Shown here: positions 1-11,854 of the stretch, piece after piece
How the letters are laid out: every line of letters starts with the position of its first letter
Position numbering within the stretch: the first letter of the stretch is position 1
Source: Chloroflexota bacterium
GTDB taxonomy: Bacteria > Chloroflexota > Anaerolineae > B4-G1
Assembly (NCBI GenBank): GCA_011046405.1
Contig: DSAR01000373.1
Location: 1-12,074 of the forward strand
Direction of reading: 5' to 3'
DNA length: 12,074 bases
Program-made: the position numbers and the translations under genes
The notes under the pieces: generated by a model
What the model saw: the letters and a program-made list of their open reading frames with translations, nothing else
What the model was told of the DNA's origin: nothing
Databases searched by the model: none

Positions 1-4
1 ATCC

Positions 5-102
5 AGAAACCAGGTTTTTTCACCAAAGCAATGCGCTACTCATTGAAAAACGTGTGTGATGAGGCATATTTCGCTCAACAAGTGCCTAAAAACCTGGTTT
101 CT
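5..102. repeat. 15-bp perfect inverted repeat pair (AGAAACCAGGTTTTT at 5-19; AAAAACCTGGTTTCT at 88-102) flanking a 68-bp spacer
   Basis: Direct reading shows 5-19 is the exact reverse complement of 88-102. The region is AT-richer than the coding DNA and lies upstream of the first regulator gene. Confidence 0.7.
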
Positions 103-179
103 CTGCCCCTGGTGAACGGTTACTAGAGAATCACAATGACAGGCCCATGCATGATCCCTGATAGTATAGTCCAACACCT

Positions 180-211
180 GTTTCAAAAGCGTTTCGAAAA
201 TCGTTTCAATA
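180..211 (+). promoter_or_regulatory. Three phased direct repeats GTTTCAAAA(180) / GTTTCGAAAA(191) / GTTTCAATA(203), 11-12 bp periodicity, ~45 bp upstream of the ORF1 start; candidate operator for an OmpR/SARP-type winged-helix regulator
   Basis: The repeats are seen directly, with one copy per helical turn on the same DNA face. This is the geometry of SARP/OmpR-family binding sites. Both adjacent genes encode SARP-type N-terminal DNA-binding domains. Confidence 0.4.
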
Positions 212-256
212 TCTGTAACGATCGGGCCTGTTTCTCGTCGAACACGTAGAGAACCC

Positions 257-3200
257 ATGTCCACGTCTCGATTGGCCCTATCGTTGCTCGGTTCACCATC
301 CCTCGAGCTTGACGGCCGCCCCGTCAAATTCGAGAGACGAAAGACCGTGGCGCTCGTCGCCTATCTGGCTGTCACCGCCGAGACTCACTCCCGTGAGGCG
401 CTGGCCGCGCTGTTCTGGCCAGCGCTCGACCAATCGCGGGCCCTATCTGGCCTCCGTCTGACGCTCTCGACGCTGAAGCGGGCGCTGGGCGAGAGATGGT
501 TGGAGATCGAACGCGACTGTCTAGCGGTCAGGACAGGCCGCGACGGATTCTGGCTGGACGTGGACCACTTCCACGATCTGCTCGATGCCTGCCAGAAACA
601 TGGCCATCCTCCCGAGCGAGTCTGTTCCGCCTGTCTTTCCTTTTTGACCGAGGCCGTCGATCTGTGTCGCGGCGCTTTTATGGCCGGCTTTAGCCTGCGC
701 GATTGCCCCACCTTCGACGATTGGCAGGCGTTTCAGGGCCAGCGGCTGAACGGTACGTTGTGCCACGCCCTGAAAAAGATCGTTCGCGGCTACGGCGCTC
801 AGAAGGCGTTCGACCGCGCTATCCCATACGCGCAACGTTGGCTGTCGATCGAGCCGCTGAGCGAGGCCGCCCATCGCACCCTCATGGGGTTGTACGCCCA
901 GACTGGCTGTCGAGAGGCCGCCTTGCGTCAATACGAGATATGCGCTCGGCGACTCGAGCGTGAGTTAGGGGTGGCGCCTGGTGAAGAGACTGCCCACCTG
1001 CACGATGATATCCTAAAGAGAGGTTCGCCCGCGCCCGCCTTTGAGACCGATCTCGCTTCCCCTCAAATGCCCCATGGCGTTCCCTTTTATCCTACCCCGT
1101 TCCTCGGTCGGTCGAGCGAATTGGCCAAGATAGCCCAATCTTTGGAGGATCCGGCCTGTCGCACGTTAACCCTGATCGGCGTTGGCGGCGTTGGTAAGAG
1201 CCGCCTGGCGGCCCAGGCGGCGGCGCAGGCGGTGGGCAACTTTGCCCACGGTGTCTACTATATCCCGCTGGCCGCGCTGAATTCGCCCACTCTGTTGGCT
1301 TCCACCATCGTCCATTCCCTGGGTCTCTTTCTGCACGGTGGGACGTCTCCCGTCGAACAGCTCCTCGGCTACCTGCGCGAAAAAGAGATGTTGCTCGTGC
1401 TGGATAATTTCGAACACCTGCTGCCTTTTGGGCAGGATCGCGGCAGCGGGACGGACACGGGCATTTCCGATGCAGCCGAGTTGCTCGTCAAACTCCTCGA
1501 GCACGCCCTGGGACTCAAGTTCCTGATCACGTCGCGGCGCCCCCTGGCCTTGAAATGGGAATCGACCCTGGTGGTTCAAGGGCTCGGATTGCCGAGCGAC
1601 GCGGCGGAGGATACGGCGGAACGCTGCGATGCGGTCCGGTTGTTCGTCCAGAGCGCGCGGCGGGTTCGACCGGGCTTTCAACTGGGGGGCGAGGAGAGGC
1701 CTTCGGCCATCCACATCTGCCGATTCCTGGGGGGGCTGCCGTTGGGAATCGAGATGGCGGCCACGTGGCTGCAGGCGCTTTCCTGTCAAGAGATCGCGCA
1801 AAAGATCGAGCAGGGGCCAGCGTTGCTGTCCACTCACTCACAGGACATCCCTGAACGGCATCGTAGCCTGCAAACCGTGTTCGACGACTCTTGGAAGCTG
1901 CTAACGGAAAAGGAAAGGCGGGTGTGTCGTGGGCTTTCGGCGTTTCGGGGCGGGTTTCACGGTGAAGCCGTCGCCGAAAACGTGGCGGGCGCCACTCTTC
2001 CCATCCTCTTTGCCTTGATGCGCAAGTCTTTTATCCACCGCACGCCCCGTGGGCGGTACGAGATGCTGGAAATTCTACGGTGCTATGTCGAGGAAAAGCT
2101 CGAGGACGAAGAGAAACGGCGGGTGCACGACGCCCACTGCCGATATTACGCCGACTATGTCTATCGGCGGGAACGCTGTGTGGATGGGGAGGATCAGCAG
2201 AAAGCGCTCGGCGAGATTCAGGCGGACATCGGCAACGTGCGCGCGGCCTGGAGGTGGGCCGTGGCCCAGGGCCGCTTGGAAGCGATCGACAAATCCCTGG
2301 AGAGCCTTTGCTTCCTCCACCAGGTGCGGGGCTGGTTCGAAGAAGGGCGCGCGCTCTTCGAGATGGCCGCCAGCAGGCTCGAGGAGATGGGCGATGTCCC
2401 CGCTGAAGGGAATCGGTCCAAGGATGCGGTGCTCGCTCGCGTTCTGGCTCGCCAAGCGAGGTTGTGCGTTCCGCTCTCTTTGTACGAAAAGGCGGATTCG
2501 CTCCTGCGGACCAGCCTGGGGATTTTCCGCCGCCTGGGGATGCAAAGAGAATCGGCGTCGGCGCTCTACTACCTGGGGCTCGTCGCCTACTGCCTGGGCG
2601 AATATGCGCGAGCCCAAGACCTGTATCGAGAAAGCCTGGCGATCTGTGAAGAGCTTGCGTATCTGCCTGGCGCGGCAAGGAGCCTGGTCCACCTGGGCGT
2701 GATCGCCTCTCATCAAGGTGAGCATGCAGCCGCGCGACAGCTGTGCCAGAAAAGCATGGCGATATTTCTAGAGACCGGAGATCGGCTGGAGACCGCCAGG
2801 TGCCTGGGCAATATGGGGCTCGTCGCGGCGGCCTCGAAAGAGCACGCCGAAGCGGAACGGTTGCATCGCGAAAGCCTGACGATGTTTGAAGAGATCGGTG
2901 ATCAGCTGGCGATCGCCAAGTGTTACCACAACATGGGGGCCGCCGTGCGCGCTCAAGGGGATCATCGCAAAGCCAGGCATCTCTACCAGCAGAGTCTGGC
3001 CATCGCCGAGTCCCTGGGCGACCGATGGGGCATCGCCAGCAACTCGATTGGCCTGGGGTTCACCCTCTCGAACATCGGGGAGGGGCGCGAAGCGAAAGAA
3101 CGGTTTCAAAAGGCCCTAGAAACGGCCGCGAGCCTGGGGGTGACGCCGATGATTCACGAGTCCCTGCTTGGATTGGCGGCACTCCTGGCGCAGACAGGGG

Positions 3201-3397
3201 ATATTGCGAAAGCGCTGGAAATCACCGCTTATCTGCGTCACTGTCAGGCCGTTCAGGGGGAGCAGGTCCAGGCCTTGGTCGAGGATCTCTTTGACCGATT
3301 GGCCCCTCAACTGGCGCCCAACCAACTAGCCCAGATCGAGGCCAGAGCCCAGGCCAGAGATATCGAGCATTACATCGACGTTTGCCGAGGGCGTTAA
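257..3397 (+). CDS. AfsR-like STAND transcriptional regulator: N-terminal SARP/OmpR-type winged-helix + BTAD, central NB-ARC P-loop NTPase, C-terminal TPR repeats (1046 aa)
   Basis: The N-terminus (LLGSPSLELDGRPVKFERRKTVALVAYLAV...ALFWP...LKRALGE) fits the trans_reg_C/SARP pattern. Walker A is LIGVGGVGKSRLA and Walker B is MLLVLDNFEHLL. The ITSR sensor-1-like motif and the GLPLGIEMAATWL (GLPL) motif of NB-ARC/STAND NTPases are present. The C-terminal ~350 aa consists of ~40-aa TPR-like repeats (LGxxxxxxGxYxxAxxxYxxSLxIxxxLGD). It is a long uninterrupted ORF. Confidence 0.85.
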   Translation: MSTSRLALSLLGSPSLELDGRPVKFERRKTVALVAYLAVTAETHSREALAALFWPALDQSRALSGLRLTLSTLKRALGERWLEIERDCLAVRTGRDGFWLDVDHFHDLLDACQKHGHPPERVCSACLSFLTEAVDLCRGAFMAGFSLRDCPTFDDWQAFQGQRLNGTLCHALKKIVRGYGAQKAFDRAIPYAQRWLSIEPLSEAAHRTLMGLYAQTGCREAALRQYEICARRLERELGVAPGEETAHLHDDILKRGSPAPAFETDLASPQMPHGVPFYPTPFLGRSSELAKIAQSLEDPACRTLTLIGVGGVGKSRLAAQAAAQAVGNFAHGVYYIPLAALNSPTLLASTIVHSLGLFLHGGTSPVEQLLGYLREKEMLLVLDNFEHLLPFGQDRGSGTDTGISDAAELLVKLLEHALGLKFLITSRRPLALKWESTLVVQGLGLPSDAAEDTAERCDAVRLFVQSARRVRPGFQLGGEERPSAIHICRFLGGLPLGIEMAATWLQALSCQEIAQKIEQGPALLSTHSQDIPERHRSLQTVFDDSWKLLTEKERRVCRGLSAFRGGFHGEAVAENVAGATLPILFALMRKSFIHRTPRGRYEMLEILRCYVEEKLEDEEKRRVHDAHCRYYADYVYRRERCVDGEDQQKALGEIQADIGNVRAAWRWAVAQGRLEAIDKSLESLCFLHQVRGWFEEGRALFEMAASRLEEMGDVPAEGNRSKDAVLARVLARQARLCVPLSLYEKADSLLRTSLGIFRRLGMQRESASALYYLGLVAYCLGEYARAQDLYRESLAICEELAYLPGAARSLVHLGVIASHQGEHAAARQLCQKSMAIFLETGDRLETARCLGNMGLVAAASKEHAEAERLHRESLTMFEEIGDQLAIAKCYHNMGAAVRAQGDHRKARHLYQQSLAIAESLGDRWGIASNSIGLGFTLSNIGEGREAKERFQKALETAASLGVTPMIHESLLGLAALLAQTGDIAKALEITAYLRHCQAVQGEQVQALVEDLFDRLAPQLAPNQLAQIEARAQARDIEHYIDVCRGR

Positions 3398-3408
3398 CGG
3401 GGGTGTCT

Positions 3409-6400
3409 ATGTCCAATCTGGCGCTGTACCTGCTGGGCGCGCCGCGTATCGAGCTCGACGGAACGGTGGTTGTCATTGGCAGGCGGAAGGCGGTGGCTTT
3501 GGCCGCGTACCTGGCTGTGACGGGTGAGAGACATTCTCGCACAGCTTTGGCCAGACTTTTCTGGCCAGAATCGGATCCGCCCCACGCCCTGGCGGCCCTG
3601 CGCCTGGCGCTCTTGACCTTGAAGGAGGCCATTGGCGAAGAATGGCTCGAGATCGAACGCACGAGCCTGGCCCTTTGCCGTACCCCAGATTACTGGTCAG
3701 ACGTGACGCATTTCCGCCATCTTTTGATTGGGTGTGAAGCGCATACCCATTCCCCCGACAGTGTGTGTCCTAACTGCCTTGCTCTGTTGACCAACGCCGT
3801 GCTCATCTACCGCGACGATTTCATGGCCGGCTTTACCCTGCGGGACAGTTCGGCTTTCGACGATTGGCAATCCTTCCAGTGTCAGGACCTGCAGCGCAGG
3901 TTGGATTACGCGTTGGAAAAGCTGTCCCTTGGCTACGGGGCGCGCGGCGAGTTGCACCACGCCGTCCCATTCGCTCAGCGATGGTTGAACCGCGATCCTT
4001 TGAACGAATCGGCTCATCGTTTGTTGATGCGTCTGTATACCTGGAACAAACAACGCGAGGCGGCCCTGCGCCAATATCAGCGCTGTCGAGAGGCGCTTGA
4101 GCAGGAGCTGGGGCGCTTTCCGGAAGAGGAGACGGATCAACTCTACCACGCCATCATTGAGGATCGTTTGCCTCCTCTCGATGGGCTTTCATCTTCATTT
4201 TCGTTTCGCCCTCTGCTGTCTCACAATCTTCCCTCTCAATCGACGCCCTTCCTGGGGCGGGAGCGTGAGTTGGCCAAGCTCCTGGCACTTCTCCGTGATC
4301 CTGCTTGCCGACTTTTGACGCTGGTCGGCGTTGGCGGGGCCGGCAAGACGAGGCTTGCCTTGCAGGCGGCCGCGGACGTCGCGATCCAGGATGCGGAGGC
4401 GTTCGTCGATGGTATACGGTTCGTCTCCCTGGCCTCCCTCACATCCCCAGATTTGCTGGGCTCAGCCATTGCGCGTTCGCTGGGCCCCTCTTTTCACGGA
4501 CAGGTAGACGTCGAGGCGCAAATTCTGGACTATTTGGAAGACAGGCGGATGTTGCTCGTGTTGGACAACTTTGAGCACCTGCTTTCTTCACCCATCTCTT
4601 CCAGCCGTTTGGAGAGAGGTGCAAAGGCGGCCGGGTTGATCGCCCGGATTCTAGGATCTGCCCCCCAGGTAAAGATGATGGTCACCTCGCGGGAACCGCT
4701 GGACCTTCAGGGGGAATGGCTCTTTGAAGTCACAGGGCTAAAGTGTCCTCCAGCGGATAGGACTGAAGCGCTGGAGCAGTACGATGCGATTCGATTGTTT
4801 CTGCAAAGCGCCCGTCGCGTTCAGCCAGACTTTCGAGTTTTGGAGGACGAGGCGCCTTTTGTGGTCCGCATCTGCCGGTTCTTGGATGGTTTGCCGTTGG
4901 GGATCGAACTGGCCGCCGCCTGGCTGCAAATGTTTACCTGTCAGGAGATCGCGCAGAGGATCGAACAGGGGCTCTGCTTCCTCGATACGTCCTTGCGAGA
5001 CGTCCCAGAACGGCACCGCAGCCTGCGAGCCGTGTTCGATCATTCCTGGGACCTTTTATCGGATGAGGAAAAGGACGTATGTCGCTGTCTTTCAGTGTTC
5101 CGGGGAGGATTCCGTGGTGAGGCCGCGGCAGAGCAAGTCGCTGGGGCCTCGTTGCCGACGCTTCTTTCCTTGATACGCAAGTCATTTCTCCACCTCGATC
5201 CCGATGGACGCTACGCGATGCCCGAGGTGCTGCGCAGGTACGTCGAGGGTAAGCTCGATCAGCATCCCCAACAGAAGGCGCTCGCTCGAGAGCGCCACTG
5301 TGAATATTACGCTGAATTCCTACACCAACGGCATGGCGACATAGAGGGAAGAAACCAACGGCAGGCGTTGGAAGAGATCCGCAAAGAGCTGGAGAACGTG
5401 CGGGTCGGTTGGGAGTGGGCCGTGAAGCAGGTGAATATGGAGGCCATAGACAAGGCCATAGGCAGCCTTTGTCATCTTTACGAGATGCACGGATGGTTTC
5501 AGGAGGGCGAAGAGCTCTTGACCAGGGCCTGGGAAGCGTTGAGTGAGTCTATGCAGGCGATGAACGATCCCCCGACTCGGGATCTCTTGATTCTGGCCCG
5601 GGTCATCGATTGGCGCGGCTGGCTGTGTTACTTGCTCTCCCGTTTCGAACAAGCTCGAGACCTGTTGGAAACCAGCTATGCCATGTTCTGCCGTCTTGAT
5701 GAACAAGAGGCGCGCGCCCTATCGCTCAAGAACCTGGGCAATGTGACGACGAGTCTGGGTGAATATGCCGCAGCTAGAAAACTATTTCAGAAAAGCGTTT
5801 CCATCTCTAAAAGGGCCGACGATCAGGTCGGCATTGGATGGGGATTTGATGGCCTGGGCTATATCGCCGAGGCGATGGGGGAGTATGCCAGGGCCCGGCG
5901 GTTGTATCAGAGATGCCTTGGAATTTGGAAAGAGCTGGGAAATCCAGAGGGGATCACCTGGAGCCTCATGGGGCTGGGATCGGTCGCCGAGGCGTCAGGG
6001 GAACAGAATGAAGCCAAAGACCTGTTCGACGACTGTATGGCTCATTGTACAAAGAGCGACAATCAGCAGGGGATTGGCTGGTGTCTCGACGGCCTGAGCC
6101 GTCTCGCTGAGGGTTCGGGAAACTACGAGGAAGCCAAACGGCTCGCTGGACGAGGACTGGCGATCTTTCAAGAGATCGGCGATCGTTCTGGGATAGCGAT
6201 TGGCTTTAGGAACCTGGGATTTGCTTCTCTGGCTCTGGGCGATTACCGAGAGGCCAGGGATGCTTTTCAGAGAGCGATCGACATGGCTCAGGATGTAAAG
6301 GCGATTCCTGTGCTCGTAGACACACTGGTGGGGGTGGCGGATTTGCTGGCGGCAGAGGGCGAGGCGGAACAGGCAGTGGAACTGCTCGCCTTTCTGCTCC

Positions 6401-6546
6401 GTCATCCCGCCACGACCGCCCGATACAAGAAGCGGGCGCAAAGGCTTCACACGGCGCTCTCCTCTCGGCTTTCGCCCCAGGCTTTCCGCCCCGCCGAAGC
6501 AAGGGGAGAAGCACGGACCCTGGAAAGTTTTACCCCCATCCCGTAG
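3409..6546 (+). CDS. Second, paralogous AfsR-like STAND regulator (SARP wHTH-BTAD / NB-ARC / TPR), ~1045 aa; alternative TTG start at 3382 would overlap ORF1 stop
   Basis: It has the same domain order and motifs as the upstream gene: LLGAPRIELDGTVVVIGRRKAVALAAYLAV, LVGVGGAGKTRLA, MLLVLDNFEHLL, GLPLGIELAAAWL, and a TPR-like C-terminus. The ATG at 3409 aligns with the paralogue N-terminus (MSNLALYLLGAP vs MSTSRLALSLLGSP). It is preceded by GGGGTG and starts 11 nt after the ORF1 stop. Confidence 0.85.
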   Translation: MSNLALYLLGAPRIELDGTVVVIGRRKAVALAAYLAVTGERHSRTALARLFWPESDPPHALAALRLALLTLKEAIGEEWLEIERTSLALCRTPDYWSDVTHFRHLLIGCEAHTHSPDSVCPNCLALLTNAVLIYRDDFMAGFTLRDSSAFDDWQSFQCQDLQRRLDYALEKLSLGYGARGELHHAVPFAQRWLNRDPLNESAHRLLMRLYTWNKQREAALRQYQRCREALEQELGRFPEEETDQLYHAIIEDRLPPLDGLSSSFSFRPLLSHNLPSQSTPFLGRERELAKLLALLRDPACRLLTLVGVGGAGKTRLALQAAADVAIQDAEAFVDGIRFVSLASLTSPDLLGSAIARSLGPSFHGQVDVEAQILDYLEDRRMLLVLDNFEHLLSSPISSSRLERGAKAAGLIARILGSAPQVKMMVTSREPLDLQGEWLFEVTGLKCPPADRTEALEQYDAIRLFLQSARRVQPDFRVLEDEAPFVVRICRFLDGLPLGIELAAAWLQMFTCQEIAQRIEQGLCFLDTSLRDVPERHRSLRAVFDHSWDLLSDEEKDVCRCLSVFRGGFRGEAAAEQVAGASLPTLLSLIRKSFLHLDPDGRYAMPEVLRRYVEGKLDQHPQQKALARERHCEYYAEFLHQRHGDIEGRNQRQALEEIRKELENVRVGWEWAVKQVNMEAIDKAIGSLCHLYEMHGWFQEGEELLTRAWEALSESMQAMNDPPTRDLLILARVIDWRGWLCYLLSRFEQARDLLETSYAMFCRLDEQEARALSLKNLGNVTTSLGEYAAARKLFQKSVSISKRADDQVGIGWGFDGLGYIAEAMGEYARARRLYQRCLGIWKELGNPEGITWSLMGLGSVAEASGEQNEAKDLFDDCMAHCTKSDNQQGIGWCLDGLSRLAEGSGNYEEAKRLAGRGLAIFQEIGDRSGIAIGFRNLGFASLALGDYREARDAFQRAIDMAQDVKAIPVLVDTLVGVADLLAAEGEAEQAVELLAFLLRHPATTARYKKRAQRLHTALSSRLSPQAFRPAEARGEARTLESFTPIP

Positions 6547-6562
6547 CAAGCTCCCGTTAACC

Positions 6563-6728
6563 TAACCTGGACGAGCCAGAGCCAAAAAGGAGCCATTGGC
6601 CATCAAATTCTTGCTCGCTGTACAAGGATTCTATTGGTTAGGCCCTAACCTGGACGAGCCAGAGCCAAAAAGGAGCCATTGGCCACCAAATTCTTGCTCG
6701 CTGTACAAGGATTCTATCGGTTAGGCCC
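6563..6728. repeat. 83-bp tandem direct repeat x2 (6563-6645 and 6646-6728; 81/83 identical, both differences T->C), each unit flanked by CCTAACC...GGTTAGG 7-bp inverted termini; copy junction forms a perfect 15-bp palindrome GGTTAGGCCCTAACC (6636-6650)
   Basis: Read directly from the sequence. Each unit also contains three GAGCCA hexamers (copy 1 at 6573, 6579 and 6590) and an AAAAAGGAG Shine-Dalgarno-like motif. It is located in the 370-bp intergenic gap between the second regulator and the pentapeptide gene. Confidence 0.9.
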
Positions 6729-6730
6729 TG

Positions 6731-6817
6731 GTAACTGCTCAGGCCAGCCCCTTGCTGCGATGGAGAGTGGGGGCCCCCGCCCATCCGCTGCAAACGGACG
6801 GTAGGCTGAGCAGTTAC
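6731..6817. other. ~87-bp imperfect palindrome / nested stem-loop: outer 12-bp perfect stem GTAACTGCTCAG(6731-6742)/CTGAGCAGTTAC(6806-6817), inner imperfect stem TTGCTGCGATGG(6752-6763)/CCATCCGCTGCAA(6781-6793), centre GGGGGCCCCC (6769-6778)
   Basis: Reverse-complement relationships were checked by hand and the symmetry axis falls at 6773/6774. No U-tract follows, so it is not a canonical intrinsic terminator. It could be a Rho-independent-like insulator, a protein-binding palindrome or a structured leader or RNA. Confidence 0.6.
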
Positions 6818-6834
6818 ATGCCCTGTAACAAAAT

Positions 6835-6863
6835 TTGCGTTTGAGGTAAATCTGTGATATTCT
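6835..6863 (+). promoter_or_regulatory. Candidate sigma70-type promoter for the pentapeptide/SPFH operon: -35 TTGCGT (6835-6840), 17-bp spacer, extended -10 TGaTATTCT (6855-6863)
   Basis: Hexamer spacing and the TGn motif were read from the sequence in an AT-rich stretch ~55 bp upstream of a strong RBS (AAGGAG 6904-6909) and the ATG at 6918. Confidence 0.4.
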
Positions 6864-6917
6864 TGATTTAGCCATTTATCTCTCATCCCTCGGCGTCCAC
6901 AAGAAGGAGCAACATAC

Positions 6918-7634
6918 ATGTCTTCGAACGTTAATCCCAAGGTTATCGGCGATCAACCGGCGGAACCGGTCGATCTCAGCAAGAAATGGCGCGTGCGGAG
7001 CGACCTGGCCAATCACAAAGATCTACGCCGCGCCAAGCTCAAGGGCATCCAATTGGCCGGGGCGAGTCTTTCTGGGAGAGCATTGCAAGGGGCAGATCTG
7101 CGGGAGGCGGATTTGTTCATGGCAGATCTAACCGGCGCAGATCTGGCCGGTTGTGATTTGCGGGACGCTGTGCTGGACCATGCCAAACTGGCCCGGGCGT
7201 CTCTTTTTCGGGCGGACCTATCGGGGGCCAGCCTCAGATCGGCCGATCTCAGCGGGGCGGATTTGGATGGCGTTTCTCTCAAGGAAGCAGACCTCTCATT
7301 TGCCTGTCTCTCCAAGGCCAGGTTGACGCATGCGGACCTGGAACAGACGAATCTCAGGAACGCGGTGTTGCGCGGCGCTTATCTGCATGGCGCCAACTTG
7401 ACCAAGGCGGATTTGCGAGAGGCGGATCTGGGCCAGACGAAACTGATGGGGGCGAATTTGACCCGGGCGGATTTGCGGGGTGTCAAGAATTTCCTGTTCC
7501 GCGATTTGCGACACATTGAATTTCAACGGACAAAAGGCTCGCTCCTCATTCTCTTGACGGGGATGCTCAGACGTTTACAAGATCAATTCTTGAATCCATC
7601 GACATCGAGTGACCAATCATCTGCCAGGACGTGA
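6918..7634 (+). CDS. Pentapeptide-repeat protein (238 aa)
   Basis: Residues ~40-195 are tandem A(D/N)L-x-x pentapeptides (ADLREADLFMADLTGADLAGCDLRDAVLDHAKLARASLFRADLSGASLRSADLSGADLDGVSLKEADL...). The canonical SD AAGGAG lies 8 nt upstream of the ATG. Confidence 0.85.
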   Translation: MSSNVNPKVIGDQPAEPVDLSKKWRVRSDLANHKDLRRAKLKGIQLAGASLSGRALQGADLREADLFMADLTGADLAGCDLRDAVLDHAKLARASLFRADLSGASLRSADLSGADLDGVSLKEADLSFACLSKARLTHADLEQTNLRNAVLRGAYLHGANLTKADLREADLGQTKLMGANLTRADLRGVKNFLFRDLRHIEFQRTKGSLLILLTGMLRRLQDQFLNPSTSSDQSSART

Positions 7635-7687
7635 CCCAGGGCACCTTCAACGGGATGACGTGACGTGAGCGGAAGGGAGTATTCGCT

Positions 7688-9424
7688 ATGCTCATCTTGC
7701 TAAAAGAGTTATTCTATTTATTATTGCAAGTCCTGATCGGCATGTTGACTCCCTTTTTGCTGGCGGGGACCGTGACGGGAGCAATGGTAGCACTGCTTTG
7801 GTTGGCCGGGTTCTCCCCATCTAAGCGGGGCAATGAGACTGTGGGATTTTTGTGGATGTTTGGCGGTGGCGCATGCGCGTTCTTTTACTCCTTCCTGCGT
7901 TTGATGTTGGGCCTCGATAGCCTCCTCGTGCTTTTCATCCTCAACGCCTTGGTGGGAGTGCTGATAAACGCCGGATTAGGTGGGTCGGCAACGAAGGACA
8001 AGCCATTCCGGTGGTGGGTGTTTTACCTGGCCTGGCTCTACCTGTGGATGACGGTCTTGCTGGGTTGGCGTTATGGCTTCCTGGGGCTTTTGCTGATCAC
8101 GTTACCGGCCCTGATCGTCGCCGAGTTGGGACTCTTTTTCGTAGCCGGCTACCTCTTGCCGTTCCCTTACCTGGATCTCTACCGGGACGAGCGACCCGCA
8201 CCAGATCCGGCCGATATACCGACTTTTATGGACGAGATCAAGGATTTCATCGCGCTCATGCGCTTGCCAGAGAACGAAGAAGCGCGCCGAGAGTGGTTCG
8301 ACCGGCGACGAAAGGCGCTGCAGTGCTTGATCACGTATGCGTTGGGAAGCAATTATCCATATTACGTCATCATCGACGAAAAAATCAACGAGCGGACCGA
8401 GGGAATTCGCACCTGGTTGCCCTGGGAAGATAAGCTGATCAAACGCCTGGATGGAGACGTCTTCAACGAGTTCCTGGCCGGACCCGGCATCATCCTCTCC
8501 GGTTGCGATCAAGCGGTCGTCCTTTCCACCGGCCTCAAGTTCAAGGGAGCCAAGGGGCCGGGCGTCGTTTTCACCGATTACGCCGACGCCCCCACCCAGG
8601 TGATCGATTTGCGGCCGCAGTTGCGAGGCTTTACCGTCAAAGCGCGAATGAAGGATGGCATTGAAGTCAAGGTTTTCACGTTCACACCCTTCCAGATCGG
8701 TACGGGTGAAGAACGGCCCAAGCTGGGTGAAAGCTTTCCCTACCGGACCAGCGATGTGTTCAAGGCTGTCCACGCCCAGTTGATCGAGCACGGAGACCTC
8801 TCTCAGGTGCCGGAGAATTTGGAGCGGAAGGAATGGTACGACCTGGCCCAGATCATCGGGGAGCGGGCCGTCCGGGAGGAACTCTCCAAGTACGAGTTTG
8901 ACGAGCTCTATGCTCCAATTGACGATCTGTACTTGCCACCCGATTGGGAAAGCATTCGGAATAAGGTTAACGGGGCGCTGCGGGATGCCCTGGAGAAAAA
9001 ATTACCCGAACGCGGATTGCAACGTGTGGGCAGCGGATTGAGCAACATCGAGCCGGTGGACACGCGCGTATTGGAGCAGCGGATCGAAGCCTGGCGGGCT
9101 CGTTGGACGCGCGAAATTATGTTGAAAGAAGCAGTGGGGCAATCTACCCGGCTGCGTATGGTGGAAGAAGCTCGGGCCCGGGCCCAGATCGATGTGATAG
9201 TGTCTATCGGTAATCAGATCAAAAAGTTGCGGGACGCGGGAGATTCGGTGCCAATGGGCGAAGTGGCTCGATATTTTATCCGCGTTCTCGAAGGATTGGC
9301 TGGAAGACCCGGCGTCCAGCTTCACCTCCCGAAAGATACGGAAGAGGTGCTGCGTAAAGCAGAACACGTGGTTTCGGAATCTGAAAAGACAGAAACAGAA
9401 ACTAAAAAGGAACGAGCGGCTTGA
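7688..9424 (+). CDS. Polytopic membrane protein (approx. 6-7 predicted TM helices in first ~165 aa) with C-terminal SPFH/band-7 (stomatin-prohibitin-flotillin-HflK/C)-like domain and coiled-coil tail (578 aa)
   Basis: The N-terminus has hydrophobic stretches (LFYLLLQVLIGMLTPFLLAGTVTGAMVALLWLAGF, FLWMFGGGACAFFYSFLRLMLGL, WWVFYLAWLYLWMTVLLGW and others). The core SPFH signature is GPGIILSGCDQAVVLSTG...VIDLRPQLRGFTVKARMKDGIEVKVFTFTPFQI (GE-G-V...VDLR-Q...TKDG-V-V...V-YRI pattern). An RBS AAGGGAG precedes the ATG. Confidence 0.6.
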   Translation: MLILLKELFYLLLQVLIGMLTPFLLAGTVTGAMVALLWLAGFSPSKRGNETVGFLWMFGGGACAFFYSFLRLMLGLDSLLVLFILNALVGVLINAGLGGSATKDKPFRWWVFYLAWLYLWMTVLLGWRYGFLGLLLITLPALIVAELGLFFVAGYLLPFPYLDLYRDERPAPDPADIPTFMDEIKDFIALMRLPENEEARREWFDRRRKALQCLITYALGSNYPYYVIIDEKINERTEGIRTWLPWEDKLIKRLDGDVFNEFLAGPGIILSGCDQAVVLSTGLKFKGAKGPGVVFTDYADAPTQVIDLRPQLRGFTVKARMKDGIEVKVFTFTPFQIGTGEERPKLGESFPYRTSDVFKAVHAQLIEHGDLSQVPENLERKEWYDLAQIIGERAVREELSKYEFDELYAPIDDLYLPPDWESIRNKVNGALRDALEKKLPERGLQRVGSGLSNIEPVDTRVLEQRIEAWRARWTREIMLKEAVGQSTRLRMVEEARARAQIDVIVSIGNQIKKLRDAGDSVPMGEVARYFIRVLEGLAGRPGVQLHLPKDTEEVLRKAEHVVSESEKTETETKKERAA

Positions 9425-9439
9425 AGGGAGATAGGATCT

Positions 9440-10981
9440 ATGTTCCGCTTACGGATTAGAGACCAGTATTCAAACCGGGTTTTCATGGTGGGCTTGATCG
9501 TCGTCCTAGGCATTCTCCTGGGTGCTTTGGTGGCTTATCAACACCGCCAGATCGACTTTATGGAATTCGTGGGATTGACGGAGTTTAGGGAGCGTCCTTT
9601 CCTGCAAGTATTTATGGCGATGAATCCTCAACAGAGCGTCCAATTGCTTTTCGGCTTGCTTCGCTTGGTGATTAGCCTGTTGCCAGTCGCCATATTCAAC
9701 TCGTTGCCGTTGTTCCTGATCCTGGCCGTGATTCCCTGGGGGGCAAGCCGCTTTATCCAGACGCTCTACGACGTGAAGGATTTCAAGGAAGCGCATCAGT
9801 TTTTGCACCGCAACGTCTTCGGTATGCATATGCTCAAACCAATTTTGATCGTCAAGGAAGGAAAAATCGCGGTAGGAGCAGGGGACCTCCACGATCGGAT
9901 CGGTGGCCGCTGTTTCTTGATCGTCTACCACGACAGCGCCATCGTCTTGGAAAATGGCGGACGTCTGACGCGGGTGGTGGGGCCCTCTCTCAGTTTCATG
10001 AGACCTCACGAACGCATTTGGGGGATCGTGGACTTGCGTCCTCAGCGATGGCCTTTTAGCGTAAGTGCAATGACCAAGGATGGCATTCCCATTTCCTGTG
10101 AAGCTGATATAACATTTAAGATCGACGATCGAGAAAAGGACGAGGATGGCAACGTCATTGTCAAAGCGCCGGTCAAGAAAGAGATCGATGCCGGAAAAGT
10201 AACCGACGCAGAAATTATGGCAGAAATGAAAAAGGCCGGCATCGCGGAACCGCTTCCATACACCGAGGAGGCTGTCTTCCGGGCCGCGACCAGTATCTGG
10301 ATCCGCATCCACCAACTCGATCACCCGGAGCAGTTGCGCTATTGGACAGGACGAGTCATTCTTGGGGATGTCGAGGGAGCATTGCGCAGTATTCTGATGG
10401 ACTATCGACTCGATGATTTATTGCGCGCTCCCAAACCGGGACAGGAAAAGCCCCGAGAGGAAATACGGCAGCGATTGGCGGAGAAGTTGCAAAAAGCTTT
10501 TTCCGTTGACAATGCCATTGGCGCTCGTATTCTCCAAGTCAACCTGGGAGAATTTCACGTGCGTGACGTACAAGATGTAGGCATTCCCGACAAGGTCTAC
10601 TCCCAGTGGATCCAGACGTGGGAAGCCGGTTGGCGGCAACGGGCGATGGTGGGGCAGATCGAGCGCGAGGAAAAACTGGCCCAGGTGCAGGCCACCCAGG
10701 TCCGGGCCCAGGCCGAGATGGTGTTGACATTGACAGAACGCATTCGCCCCCTGGTCAATGATACAAATGATGTGACTTCCTACTTGCTGGCTATGCGCTT
10801 CATCGAGACCTTGCGTTGGATGGCCTATGATCCGTTCAAGCGCGCCTTCTTGCCCCCCGAAATTATACGAACGCTGGATGAATTGGACAAGGCGCTGGAT
10901 AGAACGATTGTTAGGGGAACGGAGAAAGACGAGGCCCTGGATAAGATCGGGCGCTTGCTCCTGGACAGGGGAGTGAAATAA
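9440..10981 (+). CDS. Second SPFH/band-7-like membrane protein, paralogous to the upstream gene (513 aa; 2-3 N-terminal TM segments)
   Basis: TM stretches are VFMVGLIVVLGILLGALVAY and LLRLVISLLPVAIFNSLPLFLILAVIPW. The SPFH-like core is PILIVKEGKIAVGAGDLHDRIGGRCFLIVYHDSAIVLENGGRLTRVVGPSLSFMRPHERIWGIVDLRPQRWPFSVSAMTKDGIPISCEADITFKIDD. The C-terminal region (WEAGWRQRAMVGQIEREEKLAQVQATQVRAQAEMVL...LLAMRFIETLRWMA) resembles HflK/C-type tails and parallels the ORF4 C-terminus. The start lies 15 nt after the ORF4 stop with an RBS GGGAG. Confidence 0.6.
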   Translation: MFRLRIRDQYSNRVFMVGLIVVLGILLGALVAYQHRQIDFMEFVGLTEFRERPFLQVFMAMNPQQSVQLLFGLLRLVISLLPVAIFNSLPLFLILAVIPWGASRFIQTLYDVKDFKEAHQFLHRNVFGMHMLKPILIVKEGKIAVGAGDLHDRIGGRCFLIVYHDSAIVLENGGRLTRVVGPSLSFMRPHERIWGIVDLRPQRWPFSVSAMTKDGIPISCEADITFKIDDREKDEDGNVIVKAPVKKEIDAGKVTDAEIMAEMKKAGIAEPLPYTEEAVFRAATSIWIRIHQLDHPEQLRYWTGRVILGDVEGALRSILMDYRLDDLLRAPKPGQEKPREEIRQRLAEKLQKAFSVDNAIGARILQVNLGEFHVRDVQDVGIPDKVYSQWIQTWEAGWRQRAMVGQIEREEKLAQVQATQVRAQAEMVLTLTERIRPLVNDTNDVTSYLLAMRFIETLRWMAYDPFKRAFLPPEIIRTLDELDKALDRTIVRGTEKDEALDKIGRLLLDRGVK

Positions 10982-11188: not shown

Positions 11189-11854
11189 TTGTCTCAGAAC
11201 ATCGTAGCCCTCATCATCTCTTTCGCCTACGTCTTCGCCGCCATCGGCGCCGCCGAGGGGTTGCGCGCATGGCGCGGCTATTCCGTCGACTTCACCCGCA
11301 AATTCATCCACATCGCCGTCGGTATGTGGTCCTTCGGGACCGTCCTGCTCTTCGAGAGTCGCGCCTGGGCCGTGATCCCGCCGCTGGCGTTCGTGCTCAT
11401 CAACGCCCTCTCCTATTGGCAAGGAACCTTCAAGGCGATGGAGACGGGCGAGAAGTGGAAACTGGGCACCATCTACTTCCCGCTCTCCTTCGCCGCCCTC
11501 ATCTGGCTGTTTTGGGACCGGCCCGAACTGCTCGTGGCGAGCCTGATGCCGATGACGTGGGGGGACGCGCTGGCGGCCATCGTCGGGCGACGCTGGGGGA
11601 AACATCGTTTCGAGGTCAAGGGTGGCACCCGCTCGTTAGAAGGCTCGGCGACAATGCTGCTCGCCAGTTGGATCGCCACGCTGGTCCCGCTGAAACTGCT
11701 CACGCCGGAACCGTTGGCTTGGAGCACGGCCATCGTGGCAGCGCTGGTGACAGCCCTCAACGCCACAGCCGTCGAGGCCTTTTCTCCCTGGGGCGTCGAC
11801 AACCTGACCGTCCCCGCCATTTCCGCTTTGATCTTGATACTTCTTTTGCCCTGA
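11189..11854 (+). CDS. Integral membrane CTP-transferase-family polyprenol kinase-like protein (phytol kinase/dolichol kinase/CdsA superfamily), 221 aa, TTG start
   Basis: It is hydrophobic throughout. It has the RKFIHIAVG motif (like the RK-x-VHI of phytol kinases) and the C-terminal GDALAAIVGRRWGKHRF...GTRSLEGSATM motif, matching GD-x-xA-x-x-x-G-x-x-x-G-K...K(S/T)-x-EG-S of the CTP_transf_1 family. A strong SD (GGAGG) lies 7 nt upstream of the TTG. The +1-frame 254-aa Arg-rich ORF 11155-11919 is a GC-driven shadow. Confidence 0.6.
   Translation: MSQNIVALIISFAYVFAAIGAAEGLRAWRGYSVDFTRKFIHIAVGMWSFGTVLLFESRAWAVIPPLAFVLINALSYWQGTFKAMETGEKWKLGTIYFPLSFAALIWLFWDRPELLVASLMPMTWGDALAAIVGRRWGKHRFEVKGGTRSLEGSATMLLASWIATLVPLKLLTPEPLAWSTAIVAALVTALNATAVEAFSPWGVDNLTVPAISALILILLLP

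Follow-up and report, generated by a model that had tools for sequence, protein, structure and literature searches.

The question raised by this locus is whether five co-oriented genes constitute one regulated system or are independent neighbours. The window, i.e. the whole stretch of 12,074 nucleotides analysed here (contig DSAR01000373.1 of a Chloroflexota bacterium), had been described in an earlier note as carrying a candidate module, in which two regulators could gate the expression of a membrane-scaffold operon. The five genes are real, and the domains predicted for them hold in all cases (Pfam, profiles and fold comparison). They encode two AfsR-like SARP-STAND regulators (ORF1 and ORF2), a pentapeptide-repeat protein (ORF3) and a pair of SPFH paralogues that recall HflK/HflC (ORF4 and ORF5), as the note had proposed. 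The block as a whole is probably a set of independent units lying side by side (three separate transcription units) and not one system.

257..3397, + strand: ORF1, large SARP (winged-helix DBD, BTAD, NB-ARC P-loop NTPase and TPR), 1046 aa; from Pfam, the match to AfsR and an N-terminal profile
3409..6546, + strand: ORF2, paralogous large SARP, 1045 aa from the ATG at 3409; from Pfam BTAD, NB-ARC and TPR_12
6918..7634, + strand: ORF3, pentapeptide-repeat protein, 238 aa, with AAGGAG as its ribosome-binding site; from Pfam PF00805
7688..9424, + strand: ORF4, SPFH-A, 578 aa; from a structure model, Foldseek, hydropathy and homologues
9440..10981, + strand: ORF5, SPFH-B, 513 aa

ORF1 and ORF2 are 46% identical. 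An alternative TTG start of ORF2 is located at 3382, and the ATG at 3409 is the start called in two contigs of the same population (L055 and L056). The HMM searches proposed in the earlier note confirmed BTAD, TPR, the pentapeptide repeats and the NB-ARC domain of ORF2, whereas Trans_reg_C remained silent, ORF4 was missed by Pfam and the NB-ARC score of ORF1 fell below the cut-off. The DBD of ORF1 and ORF2, undetected by Pfam Trans_reg_C, was recognized as the OmpR-type winged helix of the SARP family by a profile of four N-terminal sequences, which matched the SARP domain of AfsR (positions 4-252 to 45-285, E 2e-13) and the winged helix-turn-helix of EmbR (3-76 to 10-84, E 9e-10). ORF1 also aligns directly to AfsR (E 2.2e-9 over aa 18-354). 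The DBD is followed by BTAD (PF03704, 67.9 bits in ORF1 and 62.7 bits in ORF2, cut-off 22.1). Regarding NB-ARC, ORF2 scored 30.1 bits and ORF1 19.4 bits (cut-off 23.5); ORF1 is matched by AAA_22 and AAA_16 as well. A Walker A motif (GVGGVGKS) and a Walker B motif (LLVLDN) are visible in the translation of ORF1, and GVGGxGK[ST] and LLVLDNFEH occur in both proteins, as expected of an NB-ARC P-loop. The C-terminal TPR sensor is clearly present (TPR_12, 113.6 and 120.2 bits, respectively, cut-off 30.1). Neither protein is an AfsR orthologue by NCBIfam NF053617 (99.4 and 96.5 bits vs a cut-off of 1430). A metagenome scan for relatives of ORF1 yielded five loci, two of them N-terminal fragments of 42-44% identity and three TPR-only matches, none with usable gene context.

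ORF3 consists of tandem A(D/N)LXX repeats (PF00805, 163.1 bits vs a cut-off of 20.2, six stretches). Thousands of generic pentapeptide proteins came up as homologues, with no close orthologue and no orthologous family among them; the top-ranked match aligned to 62% of the query at 48% identity, others reaching about 54% at similarly partial coverage. ORF3, ORF4 and ORF5 are separated by 53 nt and 15 nt, respectively, and each is preceded by a Shine-Dalgarno sequence, a spacing that points to a probable operon. The pentapeptide-repeat gene upstream of the SPFH pair is specific to this lineage.

Both SPFH proteins are polytopic, and they share 25% identity. ORF4 comprises about five N-terminal hydrophobic helices, the SPFH domain, a 57-residue helix and C-terminal helices; ORF5 comprises two to three N-terminal hydrophobic helices, an SPFH domain with a charged insert of about 70 aa, a 55-residue helix and C-terminal helices. 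Monomer models were obtained with moderate confidence (pLDDT 73-74; 74 for ORF4), and in these models the long coiled-coil helix that follows the SPFH domain spans residues 460-516 of ORF4 and 384-438 of ORF5. Comparison of the predicted ORF4 fold with the PDB by Foldseek retrieved stomatin, HflK/C, PHB (prohibitin), flotillin and MVP (E 3e-8 to 1e-5), the alignments to the full chains of HflK/C, PHB and stomatin being about 290 columns long, which identifies the alpha/beta domain of the SPFH/Band 7 superfamily. The fold comparison was needed for this assignment because family profiles searched against PDB sequences reached stomatin at no better than E ~0.01, and Pfam gave no match for ORF4. 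Orthology to HflK or HflC was not indicated, as no NCBIfam model matched at E<=0.01 and the N-termini are polytopic. FtsH is not among the genes called in the three relatives examined for it, and NfeD matched neither any protein of the window nor the partner gene in relatives (TPR matches only), so that a stomatin-NfeD arrangement is not indicated either. Literature searches combining SPFH with Chloroflexi, pentapeptide or anti-phage retrieved no description of this pair.

The gene-order conservation on which the module claim depended was assessed in 51 distinct loci from Anaerolineae and Thermoflexia MAGs (49 genome loci plus two further distinct contigs; five had been fetched, three being duplicates). 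An ORF4-like gene is followed by an adjacent ORF5-like gene, in the same order, in every related locus with upstream sequence, and in the gene calls the two overlap by 4-17 nt. No homologue of ORF1/ORF2 or ORF3 was found beside the SPFH pair in any of the 51 loci outside the same population (blastp and phmmer), a comparison that covers distant relatives (ORF5 identity <=62%). The only phmmer matches were a weak one to the P-loop region in L011, on the opposite strand and some 2 kb upstream of the SPFH genes (E 2e-4), and one in L045 that is generic to TPR and lies 10 kb from the pair. The five-gene order is common only to contigs of the same population from three other assemblies (L055-L057), and the module claim thus fails by the test that the earlier note itself had set. 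Because linkage across about 50 related Anaerolineae genomes is confined to the two SPFH genes, sequence comparison marks the regulators and the pentapeptide gene as local neighbours and not as parts of a shared five-gene system. GC and GC3 values per gene gave no clear signal of foreign origin for ORF1-3.

The noncoding parts of the window bear on the same question.

180..209, + strand: candidate SARP-type operator of three direct heptamers, GTTTCAA/GTTTCGA/GTTTCAA (GTTTCRA); from an in-silico motif search
6561..6726, no strand assigned: 83-nt tandem repeat, two copies of 97-98% identity, units bounded by CCTAACC...GGTTAGG
6731..6817, + strand: GC-rich hairpin with perfect 12-nt arms, GTAACTGCTCAG / CTGAGCAGTTAC; from RNA folding

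The heptamers start at 180, 191 and 203, i.e. in units of 11-12 nt, and lie 48-77 nt upstream of the ORF1 ATG. Such a triple occurred in just two of 2000 dinucleotide shuffles of positions 1-256, and its format matches that of classical SARP sites (PMC10972967). A direct-repeat operator of this type was also sought in 6547-6917, upstream of ORF3, and none was found; the only triple is the one upstream of ORF1. This absence counts weakly against control of ORF3. The most likely target of ORF1 and ORF2 in the window would be their own promoter with its three GTTTCRA repeats, and other targets may lie elsewhere in the genome; we infer autoregulation through the predicted site.

The region between ORF2 and ORF3 contains two further elements. 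The hairpin has an RNA MFE of -48.1 kcal/mol (z -3.4; none of 200 shuffles folded as well), and the sequence of its arms recurs in L022 and L015. Lying between ORF2 and ORF3, it probably ends transcripts or insulates the two genes from one another, or else is a small TIR element. The copy number of the 83-nt repeat varies, as a contig of the same population has four copies. Together, the variable repeat and the strong hairpin would part the SARP unit from ORF3-ORF4-ORF5. (The 83-nt unit was also considered as a structured RNA and rejected, since its fold is no more stable than that of shuffled sequence, z about -1.)

These data can be set against the model of the earlier note, according to which the SARP-STAND pair senses a signal via NB-ARC and TPR and activates ORF3-5 as a lineage-specific regulated membrane-scaffold module. 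The genes are indeed co-oriented and adjacent, the arrangement is stable in the three other assemblies of the population, and the AT-rich stretch of about 100 nt at 6818-6917 could hold a promoter for ORF3; the conserved SPFH loci nevertheless lack such regulators or a pentapeptide gene, the textbook-format operator adjoins ORF1 and not ORF3, and hairpin and repeat intervene. We consider this model unlikely, and gating of the SPFH operon by the regulators is not supported. A lineage-specific regulatory link between the SARPs and ORF3-5 is plausible, because the nearest genomes with an SPFH pair are distant (nearest ORF5 homologue 60-62% identical) and because SARPs in actinomycetes are typically cluster-situated and control adjacent genes (PMC10972967).

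The operator also lies within an intergenic region that, in the longer contig L055, is shared by ORF1 and a divergent GH9/F5_F8_type_C gene, whose start is 473 nt from that of ORF1. The SARP pair might accordingly control this cellulase-like gene and serve polysaccharide utilisation, unrelated to the SPFH genes. The heptamers are, however, about 400 nt from the GH9 start codon vs 48-77 nt from the ORF1 ATG, and comparative support is lacking, the ORF1 relatives found being fragments; control of the GH9 gene is very improbable.

An anti-phage or conflict system, with the STAND NTPases as sensors and the SPFH and pentapeptide proteins as membrane effectors, would be in keeping with a catalogue of conflict systems in which STAND+TPR, Band-7 and pentapeptide repeats are recurrent themes (PMC7159879). 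In the PADLOC scan, ORF1 and ORF2 matched generic TPR models only and ORF3-6 had no matches, and PADLOC and PHROGs together revealed no defence or phage signal past generic TPR and pentapeptide matches, for which reason we dropped defence and prophage as explanations. Moreover, the STAND proteins begin with a SARP DNA-binding module, the context is neither phage nor mobile, and the SPFH pair is vertically conserved and syntenic across the class, unlike variable defence islands. An anti-phage role is extremely improbable. Neither tRNA nor tmRNA genes were found in the window, and the Rfam scan gave nothing above threshold. (A match to Rfam Ysr276 at 19 bits vs a gathering score of 100 was rejected as chance.)

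The independent-units reading directs attention to what does accompany the SPFH pair in relatives. In 48 of the 51 loci the ORF5-like gene is immediately followed by the start of a gene for a TPR protein of about 330 aa (in L001 this partner lies at 11553-12569); the sequence of the remaining three (L014, L033 and L049) ends where the ORF5-like gene does or at most about 600 nt away. A homologue of the TPR partner is also present in L058. The conserved unit, wherever downstream sequence exists, is SPFH-A, SPFH-B and the TPR protein of about 330 aa. Searches of the window for a remnant of this partner, with tblastn and with a family HMM run on the six-frame translation, gave only generic TPR similarity inside ORF1/ORF2; the third component seen in relatives appears to have been lost in this lineage. 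The SPFH family comprises 244 clusters at 50% identity (E<=1e-30). A further gene of the window belongs to the same syntenic surroundings.

11189..11854, + strand: ORF6, 221-aa polytopic membrane protein with a TTG start and a GGAGG ribosome-binding site; from synteny

ORF6-like genes frequently lie downstream of the SPFH unit and are syntenic with it in 21 related loci (55-75% identity). The family yielded nothing significant in Pfam, NCBIfam (single sequence and 17 members) or a PDB profile search. The WGDALAAIVGRRWG motif of ORF6 may resemble CTP-transferases or polyprenol kinases, which we take as a lead.

A broader interpretation would make the ORF4/ORF5 family and its invariably linked TPR/beta-rich partner of about 330 aa an undescribed three-component SPFH system, class-wide in Anaerolineae and Thermoflexia and with polytopic cage subunits, of which the window is a natural variant without the TPR partner, with a pentapeptide-repeat protein gained upstream and adjoining TPR-bearing STAND transcription factors. 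As a whole this interpretation is quite improbable; if true, the SPFH assembly might feed a membrane-state signal to the STAND regulators or be controlled by them.

Under the preferred reading of separate units, ORF1 and ORF2 would be a bicistronic pair of AfsR-type large SARPs, acting as STAND transcription activators that are switched by ATP/ADP and recognize heptamers repeated in direct orientation within promoters. ORF4 and ORF5 would co-assemble via their long coiled-coil helices, the two subunits alternating in a hetero-oligomeric cage or microdomain scaffold that is anchored in the membrane by unusually polytopic N-termini; we infer cage formation by analogy with HflK/C, PHB1/2, flotillin-1/2 and erlin-1/2 and from monomer models of moderate confidence. 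As the STAND and SPFH genes are neighbours in one lineage only, a catalogue of systems should not list the block as a new module of the regulated-scaffold or defence type. What it offers instead is a convenient case for testing the SARP mechanism in Chloroflexota, namely AfsR-type large SARPs outside actinomycetes with a recognisable heptamer site, and a natural partner-loss variant of a sizeable, very divergent SPFH subfamily of a poorly studied filamentous phylum, which always occurs as an A/B pair with polytopic anchors and a TPR partner.

Compared with AfsR and other actinomycete large SARPs (PolY, RslR3), ORF1 and ORF2 have the same OmpR-type winged-helix DBD, BTAD, NB-ARC and TPR in about 1000 aa, are homologous in sequence to AfsR over the DBD, BTAD and the start of the NOD, and share the three-heptamer direct-repeat site with 11-12-bp spacing adjoining a gene (ORF1). 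They differ in their host (Chloroflexota, Anaerolineae-like), in not being AfsR orthologues, and in forming a tandem paralogue pair outside any recognisable biosynthetic cluster. ORF3 resembles stand-alone pentapeptide proteins (HetL, Alr5209, MfpA/Qnr) in being a single-domain protein of about 240 aa with about 30 pentapeptide repeats, but stays under all equivalog cut-offs (HetL 106 vs 260, Qnr 52 vs 240, MfpA 54 vs 360). Stomatin/NfeD operons (QmcA-YbbJ, PH1511-PH1510) likewise encode SPFH protein(s) of stomatin-like fold together with a small partner that is conserved in the operon, whereas here there are two SPFH paralogues, not one. A further parallel is HflK/HflC (also PHB1/2, flotillin-1/2 and erlin-1/2), with two adjacent paralogous SPFH genes always found together and, as in cages of this type, an N-terminal membrane anchor and an SPFH fold followed by a coiled-coil helix of about 55 residues and further C-terminal helices. 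In ORF4 and ORF5, however, the N-termini are polytopic (about five and two to three helices, respectively) instead of one TM or a hairpin, the sequences have diverged very far, ORF5 carries the charged insert in its SPFH domain, and relatives conserve a TPR protein as the partner, with no link to FtsH seen in three relatives. The pair is best read as an undescribed and divergent form of the heteromeric SPFH cage that extends this theme, and as the only modestly interesting part of the block.

The window consists of one whole metagenome contig of 12,074 bp with six genes, all on the plus strand:

257-3397, plus strand, ORF1, large SARP regulator
3409-6546, plus strand, ORF2, paralogue of ORF1 (ATG 3409 as called in sister contigs)
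6918-7634, plus strand, ORF3, pentapeptide-repeat protein, Shine-Dalgarno-like motif upstream
7688-9424, plus strand, ORF4, SPFH-A, Shine-Dalgarno-like motif upstream
9440-10981, plus strand, ORF5, SPFH-B, Shine-Dalgarno-like motif upstream
11189-11854, plus strand, ORF6, membrane protein, Shine-Dalgarno-like motif upstream

The ATG of ORF2 lies 11 nt past the ORF1 stop and 3' of a G-run, and a TTG at 3382 opens the longest ORF. Minus-strand ORFs are nested within these genes and unsupported. The window holds no tRNA genes, and an Rfam scan of it returned 0 families at threshold.

ORF4 and ORF5 are two paralogous SPFH proteins with an SPFH plus long-helix architecture, and they represent a very divergent variant within the known SPFH kind. 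Database homologues numbered 136 for ORF5 (those named being from Chloroflexi or Anaerolineae) and 81 for ORF4; grouped at 50% identity, the family forms 244 clusters at E ≤ 1e-30 and 1221 at E ≤ 1e-10. A pattern scan covering a single genome from each GTDB species yielded 49 loci, all from Anaerolineae, Thermoflexia or Chloroflexota MAGs, and three long-contig look-ups added two more distinct loci (51 in total). Wherever upstream sequence was present, an ORF4-type gene was followed directly, on the same strand, by an ORF5-type gene, an order kept even at 25-28% identity to the window proteins (loci L051 and L054); in the gene calls of the long contigs looked up, the two genes overlap by 4-17 nt. 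De novo ORF clustering revealed a third component of ~326 aa, which in 48 of the 51 distinct loci begins immediately behind the ORF5-type gene; in the three exceptions (L014, L033 and L049) the contig ends at, or no more than ~600 nt past, the end of that gene. This component has N-terminal TPRs and a beta-rich C-terminal half without family assignment. Its C-terminus ends in GYIxALLKP (e.g., 11553-12569 in L001 and 11520-12506 in L002). The TPR partner is also present in the closest relative, L058 (3604-5499), fused there to a C-terminal multi-TM extension. No description of this type of SPFH pair was found in the literature searched; the family is later than the 12-subfamily SPFH scheme and outside its coverage (PMC2636767).

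The TPR partner is missing from the window, where the gap between ORF5 and ORF6 is only 208 bp, and no remnant was detected by tblastn with 44 family members or by the family HMM against the six-frame translation. The window lineage is therefore a naturally occurring variation on the conserved trio, with the partner lost or relocated and a pentapeptide gene upstream of SPFH-A. ORF6 (221 aa, polytopic) has homologues of 55-75% identity in 21 related loci, where they invariably follow the SPFH pair and the TPR gene. It yielded no match in Pfam, NCBIfam or PDB; its invariant WGDA..A..G motif may point to the CTP-transferase/polyprenol-kinase superfamily. What gives the locus lasting value is the Anaerolineae trio of SPFH-A, SPFH-B and TPR protein, together with this variant that lacks the partner.

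An earlier note had read ORF1 to ORF5 as a candidate module in which the regulators could gate a membrane operon. Its annotations and the common orientation of the five genes agree with the domain searches and gene calls; judged by the note's own yardstick, a gene order kept in relatives, the module itself is not supported. When ORF1, ORF2 and ORF3 were searched against the related SPFH loci (blastp, E 1e-5; phmmer, E 0.01), none of the 51 distinct loci had a convincing homologue beside the pair. There were only two hits: in L011, ORF1 aa 268-342 (the P-loop region) weakly matched a 969-aa ORF on the opposite strand ~2 kb upstream of the pair (E 2e-4), and in L045 a generic match to TPRs lay 10 kb from it. 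The five-gene order recurred only in three same-population assemblies (L055-L057), in which ORF4 is 100% identical. Because even the closest genomes are far removed (≤62% identity in ORF5), a recent wiring specific to this lineage may still exist. Nothing was found to link the block to defence. In a distant relative, L002, regulator-like genes (1-5502; AAA_16+TPR of 995 aa, AAA_16/ATPase_2, and Trans_reg_C of 487 aa) lie on the opposite strand upstream of the SPFH pair, 3-8 kb from it; as they are not detectably similar to either ORF1 or ORF2, the likeness is probably a coincidence. ORF3, 53 nt upstream of SPFH-A, is clearly a pentapeptide-repeat protein (Pfam, 163 bits), fell below every NCBIfam equivalog cut-off tested (HetL, Alr5209, Qnr, MfpA), and yielded no orthologous family in the homologue search.

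ORF1 and ORF2 share 46% identity over their full length. Both match BTAD, NB-ARC/AAA_16/AAA_22 and, strongly, TPR_12 in Pfam, and both Walker motifs are intact in their translations (A, GVGGxGK[ST]; B, LLVLDN). Pfam Trans_reg_C found no match in the N-terminal ~100 residues; the DNA-binding domain proposed there gained support from a four-sequence N-terminal profile, which matched the AfsR SARP domain (E 2e-13) and the EmbR winged helix (E 9e-10), and residues 18-354 of ORF1 aligned to AfsR (PDB 8k60, 8jke) at E 2e-9 with the full-length query. On these domain matches and N-terminal similarities, both proteins are "large SARPs" as PMC10972967 uses the term. They are new members of that known class outside Actinomycetota. 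Orthology to AfsR was rejected (NCBIfam score 99 bits, cut-off 1430), and the best ORF1 relatives recovered are fragments of 42-44% identity. Activation by nucleotide switching is established for AfsR-like STAND proteins; by analogy, ORF1 and ORF2 would be nucleotide-switched activators receiving input via their TPR domains.

At classical SARP sites, two or three heptamers are directly repeated with a unit length of 10-11 bp, in a position at the -35 region or close to it (PMC10972967). The sole intergenic arrangement of this type in the window is GTTTCAA, GTTTCGA and GTTTCAA at 180, 191 and 203 (11-12-nt spacing, 48-77 nt upstream of the ORF1 ATG). When region 1-256 was shuffled 2000 times with dinucleotides preserved, only 2 shuffles gave a comparable triple, and the GTTTCRA triple at 180-209 matches the SARP operator format as a candidate site. 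The only other triple (AGSCCAGA, 3328-3358, 11-12-nt spacing) lies in the 3' coding end of ORF1, ~50 nt before ORF2 starts, and may simply stem from the repetitive sequence that encodes AQ(I)EARAQARD. A near-perfect 15-nt inverted repeat in the intergenic region between a GH9 gene and ORF1 (5-19 / 89-103, AGAAACCAGGTTTTT ... AAAAACCTGGTTTCT; RNA fold z -3.3 on the plus strand) could be an operator or a 3' structure of an upstream element. The GH9 cellulase-like gene (908+ aa, CelD_N, two F5/8 type C domains) is seen in the longer sister contig L055 (1-2097), where it lies upstream of ORF1 and is divergent.

The ORF2-ORF3 spacer contains no SARP-type triple, its promoter-proximal 100 nt included, and is repeat-rich, as had been noticed. 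Of an 83-nt tandem unit (edges CCTAACC...GGTTAGG), the window (6561-6726) and L055 carry 2 copies each and same-population L056 (6102-6436) carries 4, so that this is a copy-number-variable minisatellite or MITE-like array; the unit was not found in any other retrieved locus, and folded as RNA it shows no more stability than shuffled sequence does. Next to it is an 87-nt hairpin (6731-6817; MFE -48 kcal/mol, z -3.4) with perfect 12-nt arms, GTAACTGCTCAG / CTGAGCAGTTAC, which could be an element of TIR or REP-like type that is dispersed among Anaerolineae. The same arm flanks a 144-nt element of a different species (L022, 12911-13054; other arm with 2 mismatches) right after the ORF6 homologue, and a single arm copy occurs in L015 (8805-8816). 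As the heptamer triple is found only at ORF1, the spacer holds repeat and hairpin, and the GH9 gene is divergent, we favour three predicted transcription units (ORF1-2, ORF3-5 and ORF6), with SARP control most plausibly acting at the ORF1 promoter.

To our knowledge, all well-studied SPFH paralogue pairs (HflK/C, PHB1/2, flotillin-1/2, erlin-1/2) co-assemble. Because ORF4 and ORF5 types are likewise paralogues, always co-encoded in fixed order and frequently with the stop codon of the first overlapping the start of the second, and because their SPFH plus long-helix architecture matches solved cages, the two would be expected to form an alternating hetero-oligomeric ring or cage on the membrane. 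Membership in HflK/HflC was rejected: unlike these, ORF4 and ORF5 give no family matches and have polytopic N-termini. Neither an FtsH partner (in the long-contig gene calls) nor an NfeD partner was seen, and the conserved partner is instead the TPR protein.
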